60,000 bases of DNA from Mobula hypostoma. Its lineage: Eukaryota. Numbering within the stretch: position 1 is the stretch's first letter; every line of letters starts with the position of its first letter. A program made the position numbers and the translations under genes. The stretch lies in the NCBI RefSeq assembly GCF_963921235.1, contig NC_086097.1:123940001-124000000 (forward strand). The letters run 5' to 3'. The notes beneath the pieces are model-generated. The model was not told the origin of the DNA. It saw only the letters and a program-made list of their open reading frames with translations, and did no database searches. Of the stretch, positions 13,101 to 47,714 are shown one piece after another.

Positions 13101-13278
13101 TCTAAAAACAATATCTAAACTGTGTAAAAGGAGAGCAAAAAGTGTTCATGGTCCATTCAGAATTAAATCATATGCAATGTTATTCAGAGTTTTCCAAAGT
13201 AAACAGGAAAATGTTTGTCTCCACTTTCAAGCAAAAAAAACAAAACGATCTCATTAGTGAAATGAATCATGGACAAAC

Positions 13279-14011
13279 CTTTGCTTTCTTTTACCATCCT
13301 TGGTAATATTTAGTCGTTCAATGTCCATCCAGAGCCACCAGTACTTCTCTCCAGCTGTTCCCTGGAGAAAGCTTTTGAATTTTTCAATGTCTCTTCTGCT
13401 CTTGAAATTATAATTGTGATGAGGGGTCACATAACAGAAACTTTTGATATCATTTTCTTCGCTCGAAGAATCAGACTCTGTACTTTCAGCCCCTGTACCT
13501 TCAGTCAAACCATGAGACTTAATATTACTCAATGCAGGCGACTGTTCCACGTTCATTTGCTCAGTTTGAGAAACATTAGGCATCGGAGCTATTTGTGTAT
13601 TCCCATCCGAATGTTGCTTTGCCTCATGGATCACAGGGGATAGGTTGGTCTCAGTACCCTGGGTTGTTTCATCAGCAGCACTGAGATTTTCTTTGGTTGT
13701 TGTTTCACCAGTCCTGATCTGTTCTTTATGATCTGTTATATTGAAATGGGCATCAACTTTTTCTTTGTTCTTTGCTATTATGTCTTGCATTGGTTTAATT
13801 TCACTCTCTGACTTATGTTCAAAGGAAACTATCTCTGATATATCCAAAGCATATTCAGGAATGAATTCAAATAGTGTGTCATCCACAATTCTGGGTTTAG
13901 TGAAGCTGCTGGTGCAGCTTTCTTGTTCCAATTTGACCTTTGTTTTTCCAGATTTATCCAGAATTTTCTGTCTTTGCAGGCTGTGCATAACTTCATCCAA
14001 AATCGAAATAT
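13279..14011 (-). CDS. rgs22: RGS22-like large exon, 733 nt, ending FKSFLQGTAGEKYWWLWMDIERLNITKDGKRKQR
   Basis: ctttag acceptor (phase 1), AG|gtttgt donor (phase 2); C-terminal part matches RGS22 FKKFIKGTLGERYWWLWMDIERLK. Confidence 0.93.
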
Positions 14012-14334
14012 CTAAAGTGATTCAATAAATCAGGGAATCATTAATGAATCGTATCAGATTGATCGCGAGAATGTGATGAGTGTGCATATGGCTGATCATG
14101 TGGTAAACTGAATGGGCCTTCTATGCACAGAGCGCTCTTCATTTAGGCATGGGCTTTCAAGCGCACGTTTTTCGCCTTGGCACCTCTAGTTTGTTGCTCC
14201 TGCACTGTACGCTGCCTAGCATGTACCATTACTAAATGACTCAGACAAAATGTTTAATCATACTACTCCCTTGTCATTCTTGCTCCGCGCATACGTAACA
14301 ATTGAGAAATTTGCCATTTTATTCGGCCTGCTCA

Positions 14335-29242: not shown

Positions 29243-30644
29243 CTAAAATTAACAACAAAATCTATCAATTTGAAGTTCTTTGAAAAGAGACAAATAACTC
29301 AAGATCTGAAAGAACTATTAATTATTGTCCTGCATCAAATTCCGGTCCTAATGATTATTATCAAATTTTAAAATTTCATCTTTTGGTTTAAATCCATGCA
29401 AGATCATACCACTGTCTACGTCCGAAGCTTCCTTCAATATTAGAGACCCTTCAACATGATGTCCTGAATCATCTCTTATGCATTGTTGTAGAGTCATAGA
29501 GCAAAAAATAGGTCCTTTGGCCCATGCTGAACTATTATTCTGCCTATTCCTATTGATCTGTAGCCTGAACCATAGCCCTCTATATCCCTCCCATCAATGA
29601 ACTTCTCATTGTGCTCTTAATCACTTAGATCATTTAGGATATTGTTATTTTACTTAAGGACCCTAAAACCTTTTTCAAAATGTACTTTCTGTATCTCATG
29701 TTAACATAAAACTTCCTGTAATCCCATGTTTTGCTGGTGACACCTAGTAGATTTTCTGGACTCTATTAGATGTTATTTCTAATAATATTCCAACACCCTT
29801 TTAATTCACTTCTTTTTAGTATTATAATAATTTTTTCCAGTGAACTAGGTTGAAGGAGAGTGCAAGAACCAGGACCCAGTCAGTGGGAAGGAGTGCAGGC
29901 CTGAAGCCCTAGTTCAAAGACTCACAGTACATTTATGATCAAAGTATTTATGCAGTATGTAGCCCTGAGATTTGTGTTCCCCCAGGCAGCCACGAAACAA
30001 AGAAATACCATGGAACCCATTCAAAGAAAACATCAAACACCCAACATGCAAAAAAGAGAACAAATAGCACGAATGGCAAAAAAAATGAGTGAAAACCCCA
30101 CCATATATAAAACATCAAACCATAGAGTCATTGAAGCAATGTAGAAATGTTCCGTTTAGTTCAGTTCAATTTGGTGCTGTGTCGTTCATTGCCTGCAGGC
30201 CTCAGAGCCAGTCTGCCCTGATCACCTTCGCACAAAATAGCAATTTTAAAAAAGTAACCGGAAACACATACAGTGTCTAATAAAAAGTATTGAATGACCT
30301 ACCCGATCCACAATATGTTTTCTCCCCCAGTCACTTTGATGGAAGGGAAACTCCATAGAACTAACAATAAACGGCCAATGAGCTCCTCATAGCTTTAAGC
30401 TTTCACAGACACTAGGTTTGATTGTATATAACTGCAAACTGATTCCAATTTCCAGTGAAGGTTTCACCCAAGTTGTGTGCCTTTTTTTCTTTAAGAGGTT
30501 ACATTTACAGCAATTTCAAATTTCACATGGAAATTTTTGATATATGTTATCTTAATTATATATTTGATATTATTTTTCTTAATCTTAAGTATAACAAAAT
30601 TGAACATACAGTAAATATAATGAAACTATGTATTATATACCTAC

Positions 30645-30866
30645 CATTACAACGTATGTATCATCAAATTTGACATCCAGATTGGTCTCATTTTGTTTGG
30701 GCTGAGAATATTTTCTTTTAGACTTGATCGTCACATTATAGATGGGGTCCACAGGCAAAAGAGCTTGCACCAGACTCTTTAAATGTTTCCGAAGCTTTTC
30801 CTTGGCATTGTCAACAATCTCAAATGTCCCAGTAGCCTTATTAAACCAAATTGGCATCGGAAAATT
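30645..30866 (-). CDS. rgs22: RGS22-like coding exon 4, 222 nt (NFPMPIWFNKATGTFEIV...DDTYVVM)
   Basis: ttcacag acceptor, gtaggt donor; aligns to RGS22 TFSEAIRFNADYGVFEV...NPIYDV...YNIM; phase 0 to 0. Confidence 0.93.
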
Positions 30867-30984
30867 CTGTGAAGCAAATAAGTGGTTTCAGGTTTTATGC
30901 ACAGGAAGAAATTATCTTTCGCCAGCAGGGTTGCCAACTCAGCAGAATTGACCTGGAATCTTCTAGAAATGAACAACGTTTCAC

Positions 30985-31922: not shown

Positions 31923-34298
31923 CAGGGGTGGTGCTAAGGTGGTGCTAGCTGGTGCTATAGCCCCAGCAGAAATTGCAATAGCACCAGTGTAGCACCACCA
32001 AGAAATTAACTGAAATTTCACATACAAATTGCAGCTGCTTTGCTTTCTCTGTATAGTTTTGAATACAGCTTGTTTCTCCAGTTGATCTAGTGAAACAGTG
32101 CCCCCAATTACCATAGCACCCACGCAGCAATAATGTTATAAACTCTCTCAGATCCACTCTACACTTCTGCTTAGTCATTCATTGTCGATGTCTTGCCGTT
32201 GCTGTCCTCAGATCAGTTAAGCTGATCTAAGATCACTTAATGTCACTCACTCTCACTCACACAAGAGATTGGTAGTATACATCCAGGCGTAGATCCATGG
32301 TCTCGCGAGACTAATGGATGGCACACACACACACACACACATTGTGCTTTTACAAGCTAGCACGTGCCTGGCACATGCATTATTTTGGCCGGCGTAAAAA
32401 ATGGATCGATTTTTAGTGAGAAAATGACCTCATCCAGAGGAATCAGTGGTGTCTCAGCCTGAGCATGTCTTAATTGAAAGAGACATGCAGAAAGAAGTAA
32501 GTGGGGATGAGGACGACAGCAGTTCATCGAAGAGTGTGAGGGCGAAGTAAGGGAACAAGAGATGGAGCGGGATTCGGAAGAGAATGTGGATGAAGCTGCT
32601 CTTAGTACTAGTGGGAATACTGTTAGCAATGTTAGCCAGCAGCCTGAGGAAGGACCCTGTCGGCCAGCATTGAAAAAGTACCCTTCGCTGCTCGCGACAA
32701 GTTTGGCAATCAGCAAAGGAGTTTTATTCGTGGCTGCACGCATAAAAGTTGCTGGTGGACGCAGCAGGCCAGGCAGCATCTCTAGGAAGAGGTACAGTCG
32801 ATGTTTCAGGCCATCTCGGCCCGAAACGTCGACTGTACCTCTTCCTAGAGATGCTGCCTGGCCTGCTGCGTTCACCAGCAACTTTTATGTGTGTTGCTTG
32901 AAATTCCAGCATCTGCAGATTTCCTTATGTTTGCATTTATTTGTGGCTGTTTTGACTGACTGGAATATTCGATCATGAAAGATGCTACATTCTGCTTCGC
33001 ATGCAGGCATTTCCTGTGTGGAGGACATGGGTTCCATTCTGAGTCTACCTTTACTGTCACCGATTACCGCAACTGGTGGAAAGCTACAACAGCTTTCAAA
33101 ACCCACCATGTAAGTGCAGCTCATAAGTTTGCTATGTCGGCATGGGCCGAATTCAGATTGAGAAAACAAGACAGTTCAAGATTGGGAAATATGCTTGATA
33201 AAGGACATGCAAAGATTGTCCAAGAACATCGTGAGTATATGAGAGCTGTGGTGAAGTCTCTAGCAAGGACAGACAGTGAATGACACAGTGGAATTTCTAG
33301 CTCAAATGAGACCCTACCGCGATGCATTTATAGATTTATACAAACTAATCTGCATATCACTGACTCTGCCTGTTACATCTGCCTCAGGCAAATGGAGTTT
33401 CCCTTGCCTCAGATGCCTCAAAAACTACTTAAGGAATAGCAGCGGTGATGCTCGGAACAGCAACTTTACCCTGTTGGCCATAAACAGCCGGAGGACCAAA
33501 GCGCTTGACATCCAGAAAATCATTGATGCTTTCACCACCAATCACAACAACAGACGGATTGTGCTTCTCTGAAAACATTAATGGTGAGTGCAGTTGATTT
33601 TTTTTAAATTTGGGCCAAGACTAATGCTGATTATTATTATTATTTTGTGGTGGATACCCCATAGTCCTTATGTTTCCTGCAAATCCTAAACTATTACATT
33701 TACTGCTATTAAGCCTACTGGTTTTGCTTAAACTTCCAAGCGGTGATTTTGTTGATTTTTGTTTTAAATTCAGTAGCCGAATTAATTGAGGTATTGCATG
33801 GTCAGAGGACGATTTGTCCAACTCCTGGTAAAGCCTTGCATCTGTTGTTTGCCTTATTTGACTTTAATAATAGTGTATCTTTTGGCATTGTCTGTCTATG
33901 TAATGTGAATAGCAGTGGACATTGTGGGTTAATGTTTTGTTTTTCAGCTGAAAAGCACACATTTGACGCTGATTGCAGGATTGGTGCGTGTTTCACGTTG
34001 TGCGCTGTGGGTCGGATGCTCTGTTGGTTTGTTTGTTTATGCTCTGTGTAGCCCAGGTTGTCTCCGATGCTGTTGACACTGTCACAGTTCACTTCTATAT
34101 TAGATCTGTCAATTGCTGTTGCTTGTGAATCAACAGAGGCATTTATAGTAGGCACATAATGTTTGAAACTGACTTTTGAACGCCATGCATCTGGCCTTGC
34201 GAATACATATTACCATAGGGTACATCCCTCAATACCATCACTGAATAATTCAGCCCCACTGTAGCACCAGCAAGAAAAAATCTCTGGCACCGCCACTG
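31923..34298 (+). mobile_element. hAT-Tip100-type transposon, internally deleted (ZMYM1-like transposase remnants)
   Basis: TIRs caggggtggtgcta / tggcaccgccactg; perfect 8-bp TSD tccttttc; TTF zinc finger KDATFCFACRHF...H; C-terminal LTLPVTSAS..SF..L..LKNYLR. Confidence 0.92.
32737..32935. mobile_element. Foldback Penelope-derived element (about 76-bp inverted arms)
   Basis: Arms 32737-32812 and 32818-32893; 14-bp TSD tttatt(c/t)gtggctg. Confidence 0.88.
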
Positions 34299-36505: not shown

Positions 36506-37900
36506 CATCAAATAACCATAAGATAATATACTGTTTAAAGTAATTTGCAGATGTTACTTAAGAAAAAGGAACCAGCTGTGCAAGCTTCAATATTGTCTGT
36601 GATCATGCCTGTGATGATCACGTCACAGGCCTGTGATGTTCTGAGCTGTATCACAATTTTTTGTAGGCTTTTCCGTTCTTGAACACCAATGCCCAGGCAT
36701 GGAAAAGCCTACAAAAAGTGGTGGACACAGCCCAGTCCATCACATGAAAGCCTTCTCCACCACTGAGCTCATCTGCACATCTACAAGGAGCGCTGGCACA
36801 GGAAAACAGCATCCATTACCAAGGACCTGCACCATCCATGCCATGCTCTCTTCTCACTTCTACCACTGGGCAGGAGGTACAGGAGCCATAGGTAACACAG
36901 CACCAGGTCTAGGAAGTTCCAAACATCAGGCTCCTGGACCAGCACCAATAACCTCAATTCTGAACTGATTCCACAATCTATGGACTCACTTTCAAGGACT
37001 CTACAGCTTATATTCTCAATATTGTTTATTTATTTATTTGCACAGATTGCTTTCTTTTACACATTGGTTGCCTGCCCTTTGTTGTGTGTAGTTTTTCATG
37101 GATTCTATTCTATTTTTTCCTACAGTGAATGCCAGTAAGAAAATGAATCTCAGGGTTGTATATAGTGACATATGTGTACTTTGATAATACATTTACTTTA
37201 AACTTTCATTTTTGAATATCACAACAAAAGCAGCACTTTAAAAGTACTTTGCAACAACCTGGCAGGAATGTGGAAGATGCTAGTCATCTATGTGAGTCCA
37301 GTGTTACCTGGTGTGGTTGACTTTTGGCTATCTTTTGAAGTGGTCCAACAAGCCAACTGTAGCAAATTGATTCCAGTGGAAAGGACTAGAAAATTAATAC
37401 TGCCCTCATTGACAATGATTCATATCCCTAAGCTAAATTTGAAAAGCTATCCTTATTTTAAGTATTTAAATCTATTTGAATATTTATTTTCAGGTGTCTG
37501 ATAAATTCTAAAGCTTTTCACATCAAGGTATCTCAGGTTGAGTTTCAGAGATAGACCAACAGAGGCTTAAACCAACCACTTATGTACCTTGCTGGAGCAT
37601 CTCAGGTACAGAGAGTCCGTTTGCTTGCTTCTCCACTTTCGGAAAAGGCAGGTGAATACCATGGATATATGGGCAATATCAACCCATCCACATTAGACAA
37701 AAACTACTTCACTCCAAGAACAGAGATGCTCATTTTCAGTCCTATATTCACTATAAGCACTTGGCAAAGAGCTCCTCTTCTACAAAAGCTCTTTCTAAGC
37801 CTGCCAATAATTTGAAGACCTTTTTGTGTTTATTTGTGGAATGCCACTCACCATAGTTTCAGAATGCCTGTGGCACTGTTATAACTAATAAACCACTTAC

Positions 37901-37963
37901 CAGCAAAGCAAGAAATACATTGAAATAATCCACCAGTAGGTCATCAGTTAGTAAAAAGTCTTC
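37901..37963 (-). CDS. rgs22: RGS22-like coding exon 3, 63 nt (EDFLLTDDLLVDYFNVFLALL)
   Basis: polypyrimidine plus cag acceptor, gtaagt donor; matches RGS22 EDSLATDDFLVDYFNEFLSLP. Confidence 0.95.
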
Positions 37964-41640: not shown

Positions 41641-42644
41641 CTGAAAAACAAAACATTCCAAAGTCAGGGGAACATAAACCATCTAGATAACTTAAAATCG
41701 ATTAGATTAAATTTAATTTATAAACTTCTCTTGATAGAAAAGGGGACAAGGAGATGGCAGATGAACTAAATGAGTATTTGCATCAGTCTTCACTGTGGAA
41801 GACACTAGCAGTATGCCTGATGTTCTGGTGTGTGAAGGAAGGGAAGTGGGTGTGGTTGCTGTTACAAGGGAGAAGGTGCTCAGAAAGCTGAAAGAACTAA
41901 AGGTACACAAGTCACTTGAACCAGATGAACTGCACCCTAGGGTTCTGAAGGAGGTAGCAGTAGAGATTGTGGAGGCATTAATAATGATCTTTCAAAAAAT
42001 CATTGGATTCTGGCATGGTGCCAGAGGACTGGAAAATTGCTAATATCACTCCACTCTTTAAGAAATGAGGAAGGCAGCAGAAAGGAAGTTATCAATCAGT
42101 TAGCCTGACCTCAGAGGTTGGGAAGATGTTAGAGTCAATTGTTAGGGATAAGGTTATGGAGTGCTTGGTGACACAGGACAAGATGGGACAACGTCAGCAT
42201 GGTTTCCTTTAGGGAAAATCTTGCCTGACAAACCTTTTGAAATTCATTGAGGAGATTACAAATAGAATAAACAAAAGGAAATGCCGTGGATGTTATATAT
42301 TTGGATTTTCAGAAGGCCTTTGACAAGGTGCCACACATGAGGCTGCTTACCAAGTTCTGAGCCCATGGTATTACAGGAAAGTTACTAACATGGTTAGAGC
42401 ATTGGTTGATTGGTAGGAGACAACGAGTGGGAATAAAAGAATTCTTTTCTGATTGGCTGCCAGTGACTAGTGGTGTTCCGCAGGGGTCGGTGTTGGGACC
42501 GCTCCTTTTTATGCTGTATATGAATAATTTAGATGATGGAATAGATGACTTTGTTGCCAAGTTTGCAGATGATACAAAGATTGGTGGAGGGACGGGTAGT
42601 GTTGCGGAAACAGGAAAGCTGCAGAAGGACTTAGACATATTAGG

Positions 42645-43345
42645 CAGACATCTCACCTCTCCCAGAAGTTCCGGGAGTCTCCCGCAAATTAATAGTGGTT
42701 CCCTGATGCCTGCAAATTATATACAATGTCCCAGAAATTGATTTTTTTGAGAGCAAGCGTGAGAGAAAGTGAGAGAGTAGGCGCAAGAGCAAGAAAGCAA
42801 GCGCGTGAGAGCAACCACGAGAGAGAGCGAGAGAGCGCACGCGCGCGAGAGAGAGAGCGAGACCGAGAAAGTAAGCGCGAGAGAGAGTGAGAGTGAGAAA
42901 GCAAGCGTGGGAGAGCAAGAGCAAGAGCAAGAAAGCGAGCGCGAGTGAGGGCGTCCACGAGCGACAGCGTGCGCGCGATAGAGAGAGAGCAAGAGTGAGA
43001 GACTTCCAAAAAACGAAAATATAAAATGAACGTCACCCCAGACTACACTAAAGTGTACCCCTGCCTAATAGGGGTCAAAAATAATGACAGTGTTGCTCGC
43101 TGCACTGTTTGCAACAGTGACTTTTCTATTGCCCATGGTGGGTTAAGACTGTAAAAGACATGTTGAGGTGAGTTTAACAGGTGTCATTTGTTCATTAGCA
43201 TAGCTAACGTTATTTAAACTAGCTGGCCAGCTGCTAAGGAGCTACTCTATTGCAGACATCCCACCTCTCCCGGAAGTTCCGGGAGTCTCCCGCAAATTGA
43301 TGGTGCTACCTCTCTGAAATGAGTTTTTGCAGGGTGGGATATCTG
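42645..43345 (+). mobile_element. Non-autonomous hAT-like DNA transposon with GA-rich core
   Basis: TIRs cagacatctcacc / ggtgggatatctg; tattagg duplicated; zinc-finger remnant CTVCNSDFSIAHGG...CKRH (about 43095-43167); (GA/GC)n at 42748-43003. Confidence 0.8.
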
Positions 43346-43590
43346 TATTAGGAGAATAGGCAAGAGAGTGGCAAGTGAAATACAATGTTGAAATTGCATG
43401 GTCATGCACTTTGGTAGAACAAACGTGCAGATTATTTTCTAAACAGAGAGAAAATCTATAAGTCTGAGATGCAAAGGGACTTGGGAGTCCTTGTGCAGAA
43501 CACTCTGAAGGTTAATTTGCAGGTCGAGTCAGTGGTGAGGAAGGCAAATGCAATGTTAGCATTCATTTCAAGAGGTCTAGAATATAGGGG

Positions 43591-43710
43591 CAGGGATGTT
43601 ATGCTGAGGCTTTGTAAGGACAGGGATGTGATGCTGAGCCTTTATAAGGACAGGGATGTGATACTGAGGCTTTATAAGGACAGGGATGTGATACTGAGGC
43701 TTTGTAAGGC
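43591..43710 (+). repeat. 4 x 30-bp tandem repeat inside CR1 ORF2
   Basis: cagggatgtgatgctgaggctttataagga-type unit, four copies. Confidence 0.95.
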
Positions 43711-44320
43711 ACTGGTGAGGCCTCACCATGAGTATGTGAACAATTTTGGGCTCCTCATTTAAGAAAAGCTGTGCTGGCATTGGAAAGGATTCAGAGGAGG
43801 TTCACAAGGATAATTCCTGGAATGAAAGGGTTATCATATGAGGAATGTCTGATGGACTCTGCACTCACTGGAATTTAGAAGGATGGGGGGAGTATCTCAT
43901 TGAAACCTTTCGAATGTTGAAAGACCTAGACAGAGTAGATGTGGAAAGGATGTTTCCCATGGTGGTGGAATCTAGGACAAGAGGGCATAGCTTCAGAATA
44001 AAGGGCATCCATTTAAAATAAGATACAGAGAAATTTCTTTAGCCAGAGGTAGTCTCTCTGGGAGATGACTGGTCTTGTCCAGAGGGTGGAGAATTTGTGG
44101 AATTTATTACCCAAAACAGCCATGGAGGCCAGGTCATTGGGTGTATTTAAGGCAGAGCTTGATAGGTTCTTGATTGGACATGGCATCAAAGTTTACAGGG
44201 AGAAGGCCAGGGAAAGGGGTTGAGGAGGGGGGAAAAAGGATCAGCCATGATTGAATGGTGGAGCAGACTCGATGGGCCAAATGGCCTAATTCTGCTCCTA
44301 TGTCATATGGCCTTATGGTC

Positions 44321-47270
44321 TATACAGGGGAATTTACCACTTTGGTACCAGGACACCAGCACATGCAGATATATTTTAATCGAACTGAAATAATGGCACC
44401 TCAATGGTGCTTCAATGAGACTGTTATTTACTCATCGTCTTGGGAGACATCTAAGCAGAAGTGAGTTTGAACCATCAAAAATCGAAGGAAGAGAGGAGTT
44501 CTGCCTTAGGGGTAGCCACGGTAAATACCTCAGATACATAGTAGAATTAGAAAACCAGATACAGTCCCTTCAGCAAAAACATGTAGGATATTACTGGAGA
44601 AAATTATCAGGATCAGATACAGACTAATGAAATTGGTCAGTGTGCATCCAGGTAACTCGGGATGCACTTAAATTTCTGAATCTGATAGCATGGACCTCAC
44701 TTCTTTCTTTTTTTTTCTTTTTCCAACATTTTTATTGATATTGTATAAATTACATGAATACAAATACAAAATTCATAAGGATACAAGTAAATAATACAAA
44801 TTACATTACATTTAAATCACAGTAATATGATCACAGTATCCCATATTCCAAAACAATCATGTATAAAAAAAGATTGAATTATGAAATGAAATAGAATAAA
44901 ATAATTGTATTTTATTAAAAAAAATCTACGCCCACTACCAAAATGAGCTGGTTGGTAAAAAAAAAGAAAAAAGAAAAATACATTACCATATGATATTATA
45001 ATAATAATGGCTCAGATCCATACTTTAATAACAGTTCAAAGATTGTGAAAATAATTCAGAAAGGGTCCTCATAACATTAGAAAATCATGTTTAGAATCAG
45101 AAATCGTACAACAAATCTTCTCTAGATCAAGGTACAACATAACATCAAATAGCCATTGAACATGAGTGGGTCCTTCCACTTGAGCAAAATCGCTCTCCTG
45201 GCCATAAGAGACATAAAGGCCAATACCCGTAAATTAGATGGCTTCAATTTTGTAACACTATCCTCAACAATACCAAACAAGGCAGACAAATGGTTGGGCT
45301 TAAAGCTGACATTGAAAAGTGCAGAAAAATTTTGAAATACATCTTTCCAGAATTTTTCAAGGCTCGGACAAGTCCAAAACATATGAATTAGTGTGGCCAC
45401 TCCATTAGTACATCTATCACAGTAAGGGGAAATATCTGCATAGAAACGGGAAAGCTTATCTTTAGACACGTGACATCTATGTACCACTTTGAATTGTAAT
45501 AAAGAATGACGAGCACATAATGATGAAGAATTAATCAATTTTAAAATAGTCTTCCAGCTCTCATCAGATATGAAAATCTGTAAATCCTTTCCCCAGTCTC
45601 CATTAATTTTATCCATAGAGGCTATTTTCAGTCTCAACAGTAGACCATAAATGTAAGATATTGAACTGTTATCAAAGGGTTTCAGATTAAAAATTGTATC
45701 TATTATATTCTTATCTGGACTTGTAGGAAATGTAAGTAATTGAGATCTTAAAAAATCTCTAATCTGTAAGTATCGAAAAAAGTGAGTGTTGGAAAGGTTA
45801 AATTTCGTTGAAAGTTGCACAAAAGAGTGATTCCCTCCATCAAACAAATCCTGAAATCATTTAATACCCAATCTATCCCATTCTTTAAAAGATGAGTCAA
45901 TTAAAGATTTGCCTTACCCAATTTTAGGTTATATTATTGGGCGGTTAATATACGTAATATTACGTTCTAGATATATTACATTAACCATGAGAATTGCCCT
46001 ATATGGGTTTCTTTGGAAGTCAACTCTGTATTAAAATTTTCCATTATTTCTTTACTTGGATCCTCGCTTCCTTTATCTTTAAATAAACTAATTGACAATG
46101 TGGTGGTTAAACATACATTGAGGACTTGGTTACAGTTTAGAAAACGTTTTGGTTTATTGAGATTCTCCCTCTCAAGTCCCATACCTTCTAATTGATTTTT
46201 CAAACCATCTTTAATGGACCTCACTTCTAAAGAAACACATAAGAGTGAGATCTGTGCTACATATACTAGTTGAATGCTTGCCATGATTGGCACAAATTCG
46301 TTACAACTTTATGTACATCAAGTACCAAATTGGGTATCAAACGAGTAGCTAAAAGAATGGGTTGGAGAAAAGGGACCCTCGTGTCACTTTCAAAGTCTTA
46401 TACTAACCAATAGATTACTGGGTACCTGTGATGATGGTAAATGAAGGTTTTATGTTGGTGCAGTTAACCTACCCTTTGAAAAGGATTCACAATGTGGACA
46501 AATATCATGAGAAGACTTTGATATCCTTCAGTAACCCACCAACACTTTCTATTGTTATGAATGGTACTGGGAAATGGATAGATCTTTAGCCAGATGTAGT
46601 CTCTCTGGGAGACCACTGGTCTTGACCAGAGAGAGGGTGGTGAATTTGTGGATTTTTTTACCCCAGGCAGCTGTGGAGGCCAGGTCATTGGGTGTATTTA
46701 AGGCAGAGCGTGAAAGGTTCTTGATTGGACATGGCATCAAAGTTTATGGGGAGAAGGCCAGGGAGTCATCAAGGGGGAGACCACTGGTCTTGTCCAGAAG
46801 AAATGACAAGGCATAAATTTACAAATTGTGGTTTTAGTACTTAAGAAAATTATTCATTCTCTATTTTGCAAGTGAATAATCAATCAGTCTTTCATGCAAT
46901 ATGCACTGGTGGGATAGATATATAACAACAGTAGCTACAAGTTATACCAAGAGATGGAAACCGTGCCCTTTGGAAAGTTATAATGTCACCATTGGGAATG
47001 TAACTTTAAATCTGACTATTGGAGGACAAACTTTGCCTCAGTTAACAGTGGACGTGGTAACGAAGGAGAACCTCACAATCCAACACAGTGATATGGATCA
47101 ATATGTTGTTACCGACTTACCACTAATCCCTCACTTGACTGCAGACTGGACATGAGTAGTAGAGGAGGCAAGGCAGATAATCCATCAATGGACTAAGCGT
47201 ACACAAGTTATTAAGACACACGCTGATAAGGAAAATGAAGTATTAAGTGACGCAGACTCTTGGGATTCAA
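44321..47270 (+). pseudogene. Decayed viral class I fusion glycoprotein (env-like), split by L1
   Basis: RRKR at 44483-44494, ALGVATVNTSD at 44503-44535, heptad-like IVELENQIQSLQQK, Cys-containing segments, at least 7 N-x-S/T sequons; many stops and frameshifts. Confidence 0.6.
44705..46213 (-). mobile_element. L1/Tx1-clade insertion with 5' inversion
   Basis: T-rich tail at 44705; minus ORF 45122-45847; plus-oriented ALPNFRLYYWA segment 45909-46213; 15-bp TSD atggacctcacttct. Confidence 0.92.
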
Positions 47271-47714
47271 AGTAGTTACTGGTTTGGTAACTGATTTAGA
47301 ACAAAGAGCCATAAATTACTGGTTGTTACTTGCGGAAGAGGGTAATAAATGGATGCTGGATTGGACTAGAGCCAATAGGAAGGTGACATAGGTCAGATGA
47401 CCTCGAGCCATCAAGCCTGAAATGCACCATATGAACTGATAAGGGAAGGAGAGGCTTCGAATGCAAGCCAGCCACAACTCTCCAGAGACCAACGATCGGG
47501 GATGCAGAGGACCCCACATTGCAGCATAGACCCCTTTCCTGGATATAACCTTTCCTATTCTTTGACTGTTCATGGAAAGTTAGGGAAACTTACAAGGTGT
47601 GCACATATTTGGTTGTGTAACTTCATGCAGTTTTTTGTTGAGATAATAAGGGTCATTCTCAGAGAATACAGATTCTCTCTGTGCCTAACTGATCATTATC
47701 ACTAAGGAGTAATC

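Follow-up and report, generated by a model that had tools for sequence, protein, structure and literature searches.

A 60,000-nucleotide stretch of the genome of the ray Mobula hypostoma (NC_086097.1, positions 123,940,001 to 124,000,000; hereafter the window) carries a dead envelope gene (env) and a fragment of a 3' long terminal repeat (LTR), both left by a ray endogenous retrovirus (ERV) that is present in multiple copies. By itself this copy is an ordinary dead fragment. A sister copy on another chromosome (contig C2) has kept an intact env, and at a probability of about 0.4 live-bearing stingrays and their relatives may have domesticated this retroviral gene, whose product is predicted to be of the type of the paramyxovirus fusion glycoprotein (F), as a syncytin-like fusion gene. 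No env would have been known before as co-opted in cartilaginous fishes; its fold class would differ from that of known syncytins, and it would come from a class III retrovirus lineage with an envelope unlike that of its chimaera relatives.

An initial annotation, made from the letters of the window, had recognized the env of an LTR element, and fuller copies in the host genome bear this out. The peptides that it quoted are all present on the plus strand, spread over three shifting frames, and the likeness is not a matter of chance, because the three env pieces (Table 1) are about 75% identical in nucleotides to env copies of siblings. Searches of the animal's own genome returned at least 46 DNA matches to the window env (best 40 of 2359 candidates scored) and at least 158 protein matches (best 150 of 489 candidates scored). 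The more complete copies have the order LTR-gag-pol-env-LTR, two RNase H domains and a primer site for tRNA-Asn. In copies C21, C12 and C1, the Pfam domains zf-CCHC, RVT_1, RT_RNaseH, RNase_H, Integrase_H2C2 and rve lie upstream of env, and several copies run from a coiled-coil region through gag, whose CCHC knuckle matches zf-CCHC (E 5.5e-6, above the cut-off), to protease, reverse transcriptase (RT; QYIDD), RT_RNaseH tether, RNase_H and integrase. As to the smc-like gene that some lokiretroviruses carry, the region before gag gives weak coiled-coil-type Pfam matches and no SMC match. The C21 copy has paired LTRs (Kimura two-parameter [K2P] distance, 0.073) and a primer site that pairs with tRNA-Asn; when 20 loci showing this pattern were fetched, 15 were called tRNA-Asn genes. 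The whole follows the Retroviridae layout of LTR, primer-binding site, gag, pro, pol, env, polypurine tract and LTR, with an RT inside the retroviral radiation. A scan of IMG/VR with the ray RT gave no match.

Two stop-free frames longer than 400 amino acids occur among the 150 listed protein matches, a truncated one of 548 amino acids on C21 and one of 741 amino acids at G000:C2:126459313-126461511. The latter contains the C2 env (L031:314-2512), which lies outside the window, runs intact for 733 codons from its ATG, and belongs to a second subfamily whose core is 45-49% identical to that of the window's subfamily. Its product is hydrophobic at the N-terminus and has an RRRR site at residues 279-282, 15 cysteines, and a transmembrane (TM) segment at residues 678-714. 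The surrounding provirus is decayed: its LTRs are 22% diverged (K2P 0.223), the RT stretch yields no matches, and the RNase H and integrase regions survive in frameshifted pieces with a stop in each. Across 3581 codons, the seven best siblings of C2 carry 72 stops and 78 indels that break the frame, from which 30.7 breaks would be expected in the 733 codons of C2 and none is observed; the chance of this is about 5e-14, or about 2e-11 allowing for 500 copies. Pairwise dN/dS is 0.42 for the 7 C2-sibling pairs (dS 0.33, dN 0.135) and 0.77 for the 21 sibling-sibling pairs (dS 0.25, dN 0.19), so C2 is not younger than its siblings and its protein has changed less. The second value, being below 1, is also a weak hint that part of the spread of the family used a working Env. 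C2 Env is 93% identical at the amino acid level to stingray proteins of Hypanus sabinus (XP_059838750) and Hemitrygon akajei (XP_072911529), with 15/15 cysteines kept, and contigs of four further organisms match the gene at 2-5% difference, mostly gap-free in frame. Since the whole frame has been kept while its own pol and LTRs decayed, C2 env is probably a co-opted host gene, held by host selection.

The layout of the protein suggests how it would act. The signal peptide is followed by an N-terminal domain, rich in beta structure and about 190 amino acids long, which may, judging from the anatomy, bind the receptor. Furin would cut the F-type core into F2- and F1-like parts, and the F1-like part, with a fusion peptide, two heptad repeats (HR1 and HR2) and one TM helix, would drive membrane fusion by refolding into a trimer of hairpins. 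The furin site, the fusion peptide, every cysteine and the TM helix survive, and the fusion core has changed less than the N-domain (22/470 versus 23/187 changes between C2 and Hypanus, Fisher p 0.001; for Hemitrygon, p 0.009). On these grounds we tentatively favor, at a little under even odds, a syncytin-like cell-cell fusogen over an antiviral receptor blocker or another surface role. Endogenous Env proteins are well known for receptor interference, the faster-changing N-domain would suit a host-virus conflict, and Hypanus has the truncated paralogue described below. A blocker, however, would mainly need its binding domain, whereas the parts best kept are the fusion core, furin site, cysteines and TM helix, and we regard the antiviral role as rather unlikely.

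More fundamentally, C2 env may not be domesticated at all, being a lucky or younger insertion or a patch of gene conversion from a then-active virus. Elasmobranch DNA changes slowly (PMC4422223), the species compared differ by only 2-5% in the matching contigs, and the conservation of C2 is known from the coding sequence. Against such a history stand the 22% between its LTRs and its ruined pol, a C2-sibling dS that is not below the sibling-sibling dS, the minute chance of an unbroken frame, and the lack of a close donor, with no copy more than 88% identical in nucleotides to C2 env among those scored (best 40 of 150 candidates). This makes an undomesticated C2 env unlikely. Several observations nevertheless weigh against co-option. 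The C2 copy was chosen for being intact, and its presumed orthology with the stingray genes is drawn from protein identity. Selection between species is modest, with in-frame differences dividing into 18 synonymous and 18 nonsynonymous of 36 classed (p 0.007 against 29% expected); these are taken from 40 listed of 371 differences, which may include paralogue contigs. The N-domain is also the more diverged part relative to the dead siblings (0.19 versus 0.15 per nucleotide), which weakens the contrast between core and N-domain.

Two further observations concern copies of C2-type env. Hypanus holds a second, truncated paralogue of 319 amino acids, and in runs X15 and X17 (L031:200-2700) the closely matching contigs are covered about 10 times as deeply as other contigs of the family (61-81 versus 5-7; 200-254 versus 25-29). 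These give a weak hint that C2-type env was amplified in some rays, depth being no measure of copy number. Dating in years was abandoned, as a published rate of 2.2e-10 per site per year would place C2 near an implausible 500 million years, and we use relative ages only.

Co-opted env genes include percomORF of spiny-rayed fishes, and those that we know of are gamma- or beta-type. C2 env resembles syncytins and their like (PMC8003504) in that a single env, intact although its provirus has decayed, is conserved among species and shows signs of purifying selection. The uterus of rays forms feeding villi (PMC8003504). A literature search of incomplete coverage found neither the ray ERV family nor any co-opted env of rays or other cartilaginous fishes, and the family is absent from passages of PMC11521997, PMC8227577, PMC12583693, PMC13709493, PMC12386078 and bioRxiv 2023.10.17.562709. 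C2 env is a concrete candidate for env co-option in rays, one gene with which it can now be asked whether elasmobranch viviparity made use of captured viral fusogens.

That this Env is a class I fusogen of paramyxovirus F type, homologous to the Env of lokiretroviruses, was proposed in the initial annotation and agrees with both profile and fold comparisons. An Env profile of 11 natural stretches matches 42 of 1.84 billion proteins, and the 18 named matches that were looked up are all from sharks, a skate or frogs. One match, P0190 (E 1.3e-4), resembles the published Loki-Bsp Env by eye and matches Pfam Fusion_gly (E 4.7e-6). When 22 non-loki rows were aligned to the P0190 cluster with HHalign, the result was 98.5% (E 3.7e-15, 367 columns); by this profile evidence, ray Env is homologous to lokiretrovirus Env. 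An AlphaFold2 (AF2) model of C2 Env residues 205-733, from an alignment of 40 rows, reached a mean predicted confidence (pLDDT) of 68, and in Foldseek against PDB its best matches were F of respiratory syncytial virus (RSV; E 6.3e-12), henipavirus F and human parainfluenza virus 3 F, with 234/500 counted matches at E<=0.001. The likeness to PF00523 described for lokiretrovirus Env is therefore found here indirectly, through HHalign to loki-type Env and Foldseek to RSV F. Given a core beta sheet and helical bundle of F fold in the model, together with furin site, fusion peptide, HR1 and HR2, and TM segment, ray Env is predicted to belong to class Ib as PMC11468914 uses the term, extended at its N-terminus by a further beta-rich domain. 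For the Hypanus homologue, ESM Atlas feature scores reached 0.86, and structural TM-scores to clusters of Baculo_F and Fusion_gly reached 0.44; these serve as leads only.

Other results count against the F-type assignment. Single ray Env pieces and the A2/A4 profiles gave no direct F match in Pfam or PDB sequence searches, the TM-scores of the C2 core model to F are only 0.23-0.38, 3/40 rows of its alignment are themselves loki-type, and a first AF2 model from 11 rows was unusable (pLDDT 33, best E 0.018). A separate correction concerns ALGVAT, which the initial annotation had taken for a fusion-peptide motif; it is not conserved, as siblings read RK(K/R)R followed by GLLEL(L/V)GAGY.S..AT.NT and the fusion peptide of the window copy is damaged.

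Full-length F-type relatives of ray Env include P0159 (Chiloscyllium, 739 amino acids) and P0164 (Pelodytes, 723 amino acids). Both carry a furin site and TM segment and are only 22-25% identical to ray Env, and 874-amino-acid chordate clusters occur in the ESM Atlas as well; these proteins are possibly independent captures or young proviruses.

A retrovirus carrying an F-type Env is no novelty as such, because foamy viruses have one and the Env models of walleye epidermal hyperplasia virus (WEHV1) and walleye dermal sarcoma virus (WDSV) match as well. BFVD matches of the C2 core model comprise lispivirus glycoproteins, baculovirus F, the two walleye virus Env proteins and, at rank 30 only, feline foamy Env. 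The walleye entries, Q9WHI8 (WEHV1) and A4GTG3 (WDSV), match the F-type fold at E 6.5e-10 and 2.1e-8, which suggests from modeled structures that class Ib Env occurs in epsilonretroviruses too. Envelopes of this type are thus known in foamy viruses and lokiretroviruses and predicted here for walleye viruses; an F-type env in invertebrate gypsy elements is also described in bioRxiv 2023.10.26.564294. Foamy Env (PMC11468914) is likewise the envelope of a true retrovirus with a paramyxovirus/pneumovirus F core, but its receptor domain lies between the F2- and F1-like parts, whereas the extra domain of ray Env is N-terminal, as in coronavirus spike.

The pol of the family likely belongs to a lineage like that of snakehead retrovirus (SnRV), a class III lineage, here with a different envelope. 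RT was placed in quick trees of 46 and 27 rows with Shimodaira-Hasegawa-like approximate likelihood ratio (SH-aLRT) support, in which loki rows were labeled by motif match to the supplement of PMC7947760 and which held no labeled snakehead, foamy or ERV-L RT. The ray RT groups with frog, coelacanth, ostrich and gamma/epsilon-type rows that carry an MLV-type integrase C-terminus, and is split from the loki and gypsy rows at SH-aLRT 99 and 98. By eye, SnRV-like ERVs (clade Huo), such as CmiERV lineage I of elephant shark (PMC4422223, PMC6001957), share the RT and integrase motifs LPQGFHNSP, KA.P.VY and HKHDCG (this last in the nearest frog Pols). CmiERV lineage I also has a CCHC gag with a coiled-coil N-terminus and a cartilaginous host, and clusters with SnRV in PMC4422223. 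It ends, however, in a gamma-type Env (LQNRMALD...CC motif, by eye) and the ray family in an F-type one; therefore, envelopes differ within one pol lineage, and we infer an envelope exchange. The family would add a retrovirus type, a probably SnRV-like pol with an F-type Env bearing an N-terminal domain, pointing to envelope exchange deep in Retroviridae and linking the envelopes of lokiretroviruses, foamy viruses and walleye viruses. Two points tell against the SnRV-like placement. It depends on by-eye motif likeness to one published sequence, and tRNA-Asn primers are also found in some foamy-like ERVs (PMC5512871, PMC5210030).

This last point bears on a rival reading of the lineage, a foamy-like ERV of the frog/chimaera clade that so far is known from pol only. 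The Pols nearest to the ray RT come from frogs and coelacanth, XtrFLERV and CmiFLERV form one clade in which env was undetected (PMC5512871), and the F fold occurs in foamy Env (PMC11468914). Yet ray Gag has the CCHC knuckle that is absent from foamy and fish foamy-like Gag (PMC5210030), MLV RT outscores foamy RT as a match to ray RT in PDB (146 versus 109 bits), the family gives no foamy protease or Env Pfam match, its RT motifs fit the SnRV-like CmiERV lineage I, and feline foamy Env stands low in BFVD. We consider a foamy-like origin quite unlikely. Ray-type RT peptides were looked for in the supplements of PMC7947760 and PMC5512871, and none was found.

The initial annotation went further and suggested that the whole element might be lokiretrovirus-like, which would make it the first lokiretrovirus in cartilaginous fishes. 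Besides the homologous Env, the two RNase H domains and the N-terminal coiled coil before gag recall features described for lokiretroviruses, and 0/6 chondrichthyan genomes were positive in a published screen (PMC7947760). Further points of likeness are the LTR-gag-pol-env-LTR order, a tether with RNase H (common to all retroviruses and not diagnostic), and an F-type Env that has a signal peptide, an RxKR site, a fusion peptide, a coiled coil and a TM segment. The RT phylogeny, in contrast, puts the element on the retrovirus side. The loki-motif Pols P0045, P0046 and P0086 form their own clade in both trees, ray RT is 32-34% identical to them versus 47-52% to the six nearest frog, coelacanth and unnamed Pols, and a grouping of ray with loki is rejected by the approximately unbiased (AU) test (p=0.00044). 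Passages of published Loki Pol (PMC7947760) read RCPFGY.NSPA.FNIF or a close variant with IYVDD, where ray RT reads LPQGFHNSPSIF with QYIDD, and Loki Env lacks the long N-domain of about 190 amino acids ahead of the F core. A lokiretrovirus identity is thereby largely refuted and very improbable.

A direct insertion of paramyxovirus F mRNA, or a cellular gene remnant, could be read from the F-type fold predicted for Env and the lack of gag and pol in the window, but is refuted by the linked proviruses (many siblings, several with gag-pol and LTRs, and an LTR remnant adjoining the window piece) and fits poorly with the mere 9-14% identity of ray Env to the F structures listed by Foldseek, so that practically no weight is left to it.

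The window copy records the decay of one member of the family: its 5' part was lost, stops and frameshifts arose, an L1 inserted into it, a CR1-like stretch was copied in locally, and the TM end was deleted. No gag or pol was found by tblastn across the 60 kb, in agreement with the initial annotation, which had, on the other hand, missed the LTR remnant. Env piece 1 has the furin site NRRKR at about 44480-44494 and shows 1 stop and 6 frame-breaking indels over its 114 codons; piece 2 has 3 stops and 3-4 such indels, and piece 3, compared with copy L010, 3 stops and 2. Against open-frame siblings, the three together amount to about 7 stops and 11-12 frame-breaking indels. The match to C21 skips from L029:2250 to L029:2899, so that about 650 bp are gone behind 47269; this deletion took the TM segment, tail, polypurine tract and LTR start, which accounts for the missing TM anchor already remarked on in the initial annotation.

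Table 1. Features of the window around the env remnant (window coordinates; nt, nucleotide; aa, amino acid)
Feature	Position	Strand	Content	Match
Most 5' recognizable exon of probable host gene	~37900..37963	-	Acceptor-like polypyrimidine run and peptide	
3' end of long interspersed element (LINE), CR1/L2 type	43418..44316	+	Occupies the place expected for the provirus 5' part	Repeat common to other window copies
env remnant, piece 1	44322..44680	+	F2-like strand region, furin site, damaged fusion peptide, HR1 start	75% nt to C21 copy L029
Target-site duplication, left copy, 15 bp	44690..44704	+		Exact repeat at 44690 and 46214, nowhere else in window
5'-truncated L1-type retrotransposon within env	44705..46213	-	Poly(T) at left end; 244-aa frame with zf-RVT	
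env remnant, piece 2	46214..46587	+	HR1 end and beta core; opens with right target-duplication copy	76% nt to L029
Small CR1-like insert	~46588..46764	+		89% over 182 nt to 44036-44213
env remnant, piece 3	46765..47269	+	Cys-rich domain up to HR2 start	76% nt to L029, L033, L010
3' LTR remnant	47290..47696	+	First ~310 bp deleted along with env end	71-76% to both C21 provirus LTRs

The L1 insertion within env had been noted from the sequence and is real, being flanked by the target duplication and containing a minus-strand frame that matches Pfam zf-RVT (E 1.5e-5, just under the cut-off). A smaller CR1 piece had been placed at 46631-46792; an insert is indeed present, with a different span (Table 1), and it appears to have been copied locally instead of arriving by a new CR1 jump, because its closest match is the neighboring stretch 44036-44213 (89%, versus 78-81% to three other CR1-like copies in the window). 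It is thus probably a copy of that stretch. A 24-nt env-like repeat is present at 46607 and 46775. The CR1-like stretch at 44036-44213 also holds a 24-nt env-like piece, while env region 46583-46798 holds the 89% copy of that stretch, and the pair is apparently a local templated rearrangement. The LINE to the left of env we take from its translation to be of CR1/L2 class; its 114-aa frame has no Pfam match.

The remnant had been assigned to an intron of rgs22. The exon peptide at the 5' end and further minus-strand exon-like frames at about 30636-30887 and 13257-14021 resemble RGS22; Pfam finds no RGS domain within the window. The remnant lies upstream of the most 5' recognized exon and so would sit either within the first intron or in DNA flanking the gene upstream, antisense to a probable rgs22. 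Just right of the window, an IBR-type zinc domain on the minus strand (L067:5564-5830) resembles the C-terminus of FBXO43/Emi2, a neighbor of RGS22 in humans, which supports the rgs22 reading. At L067:955-1413 lies a degraded stretch that reads as RBM25-like, probably a copy of a retroelement family carrying RBM25. Elsewhere in the window, 32960-33569 and 42640-43310 hold remnants resembling a DNA transposase of hAT/ZMYM type, as well as a short element in which direct repeats of 59 nt surround a GA-rich tract.

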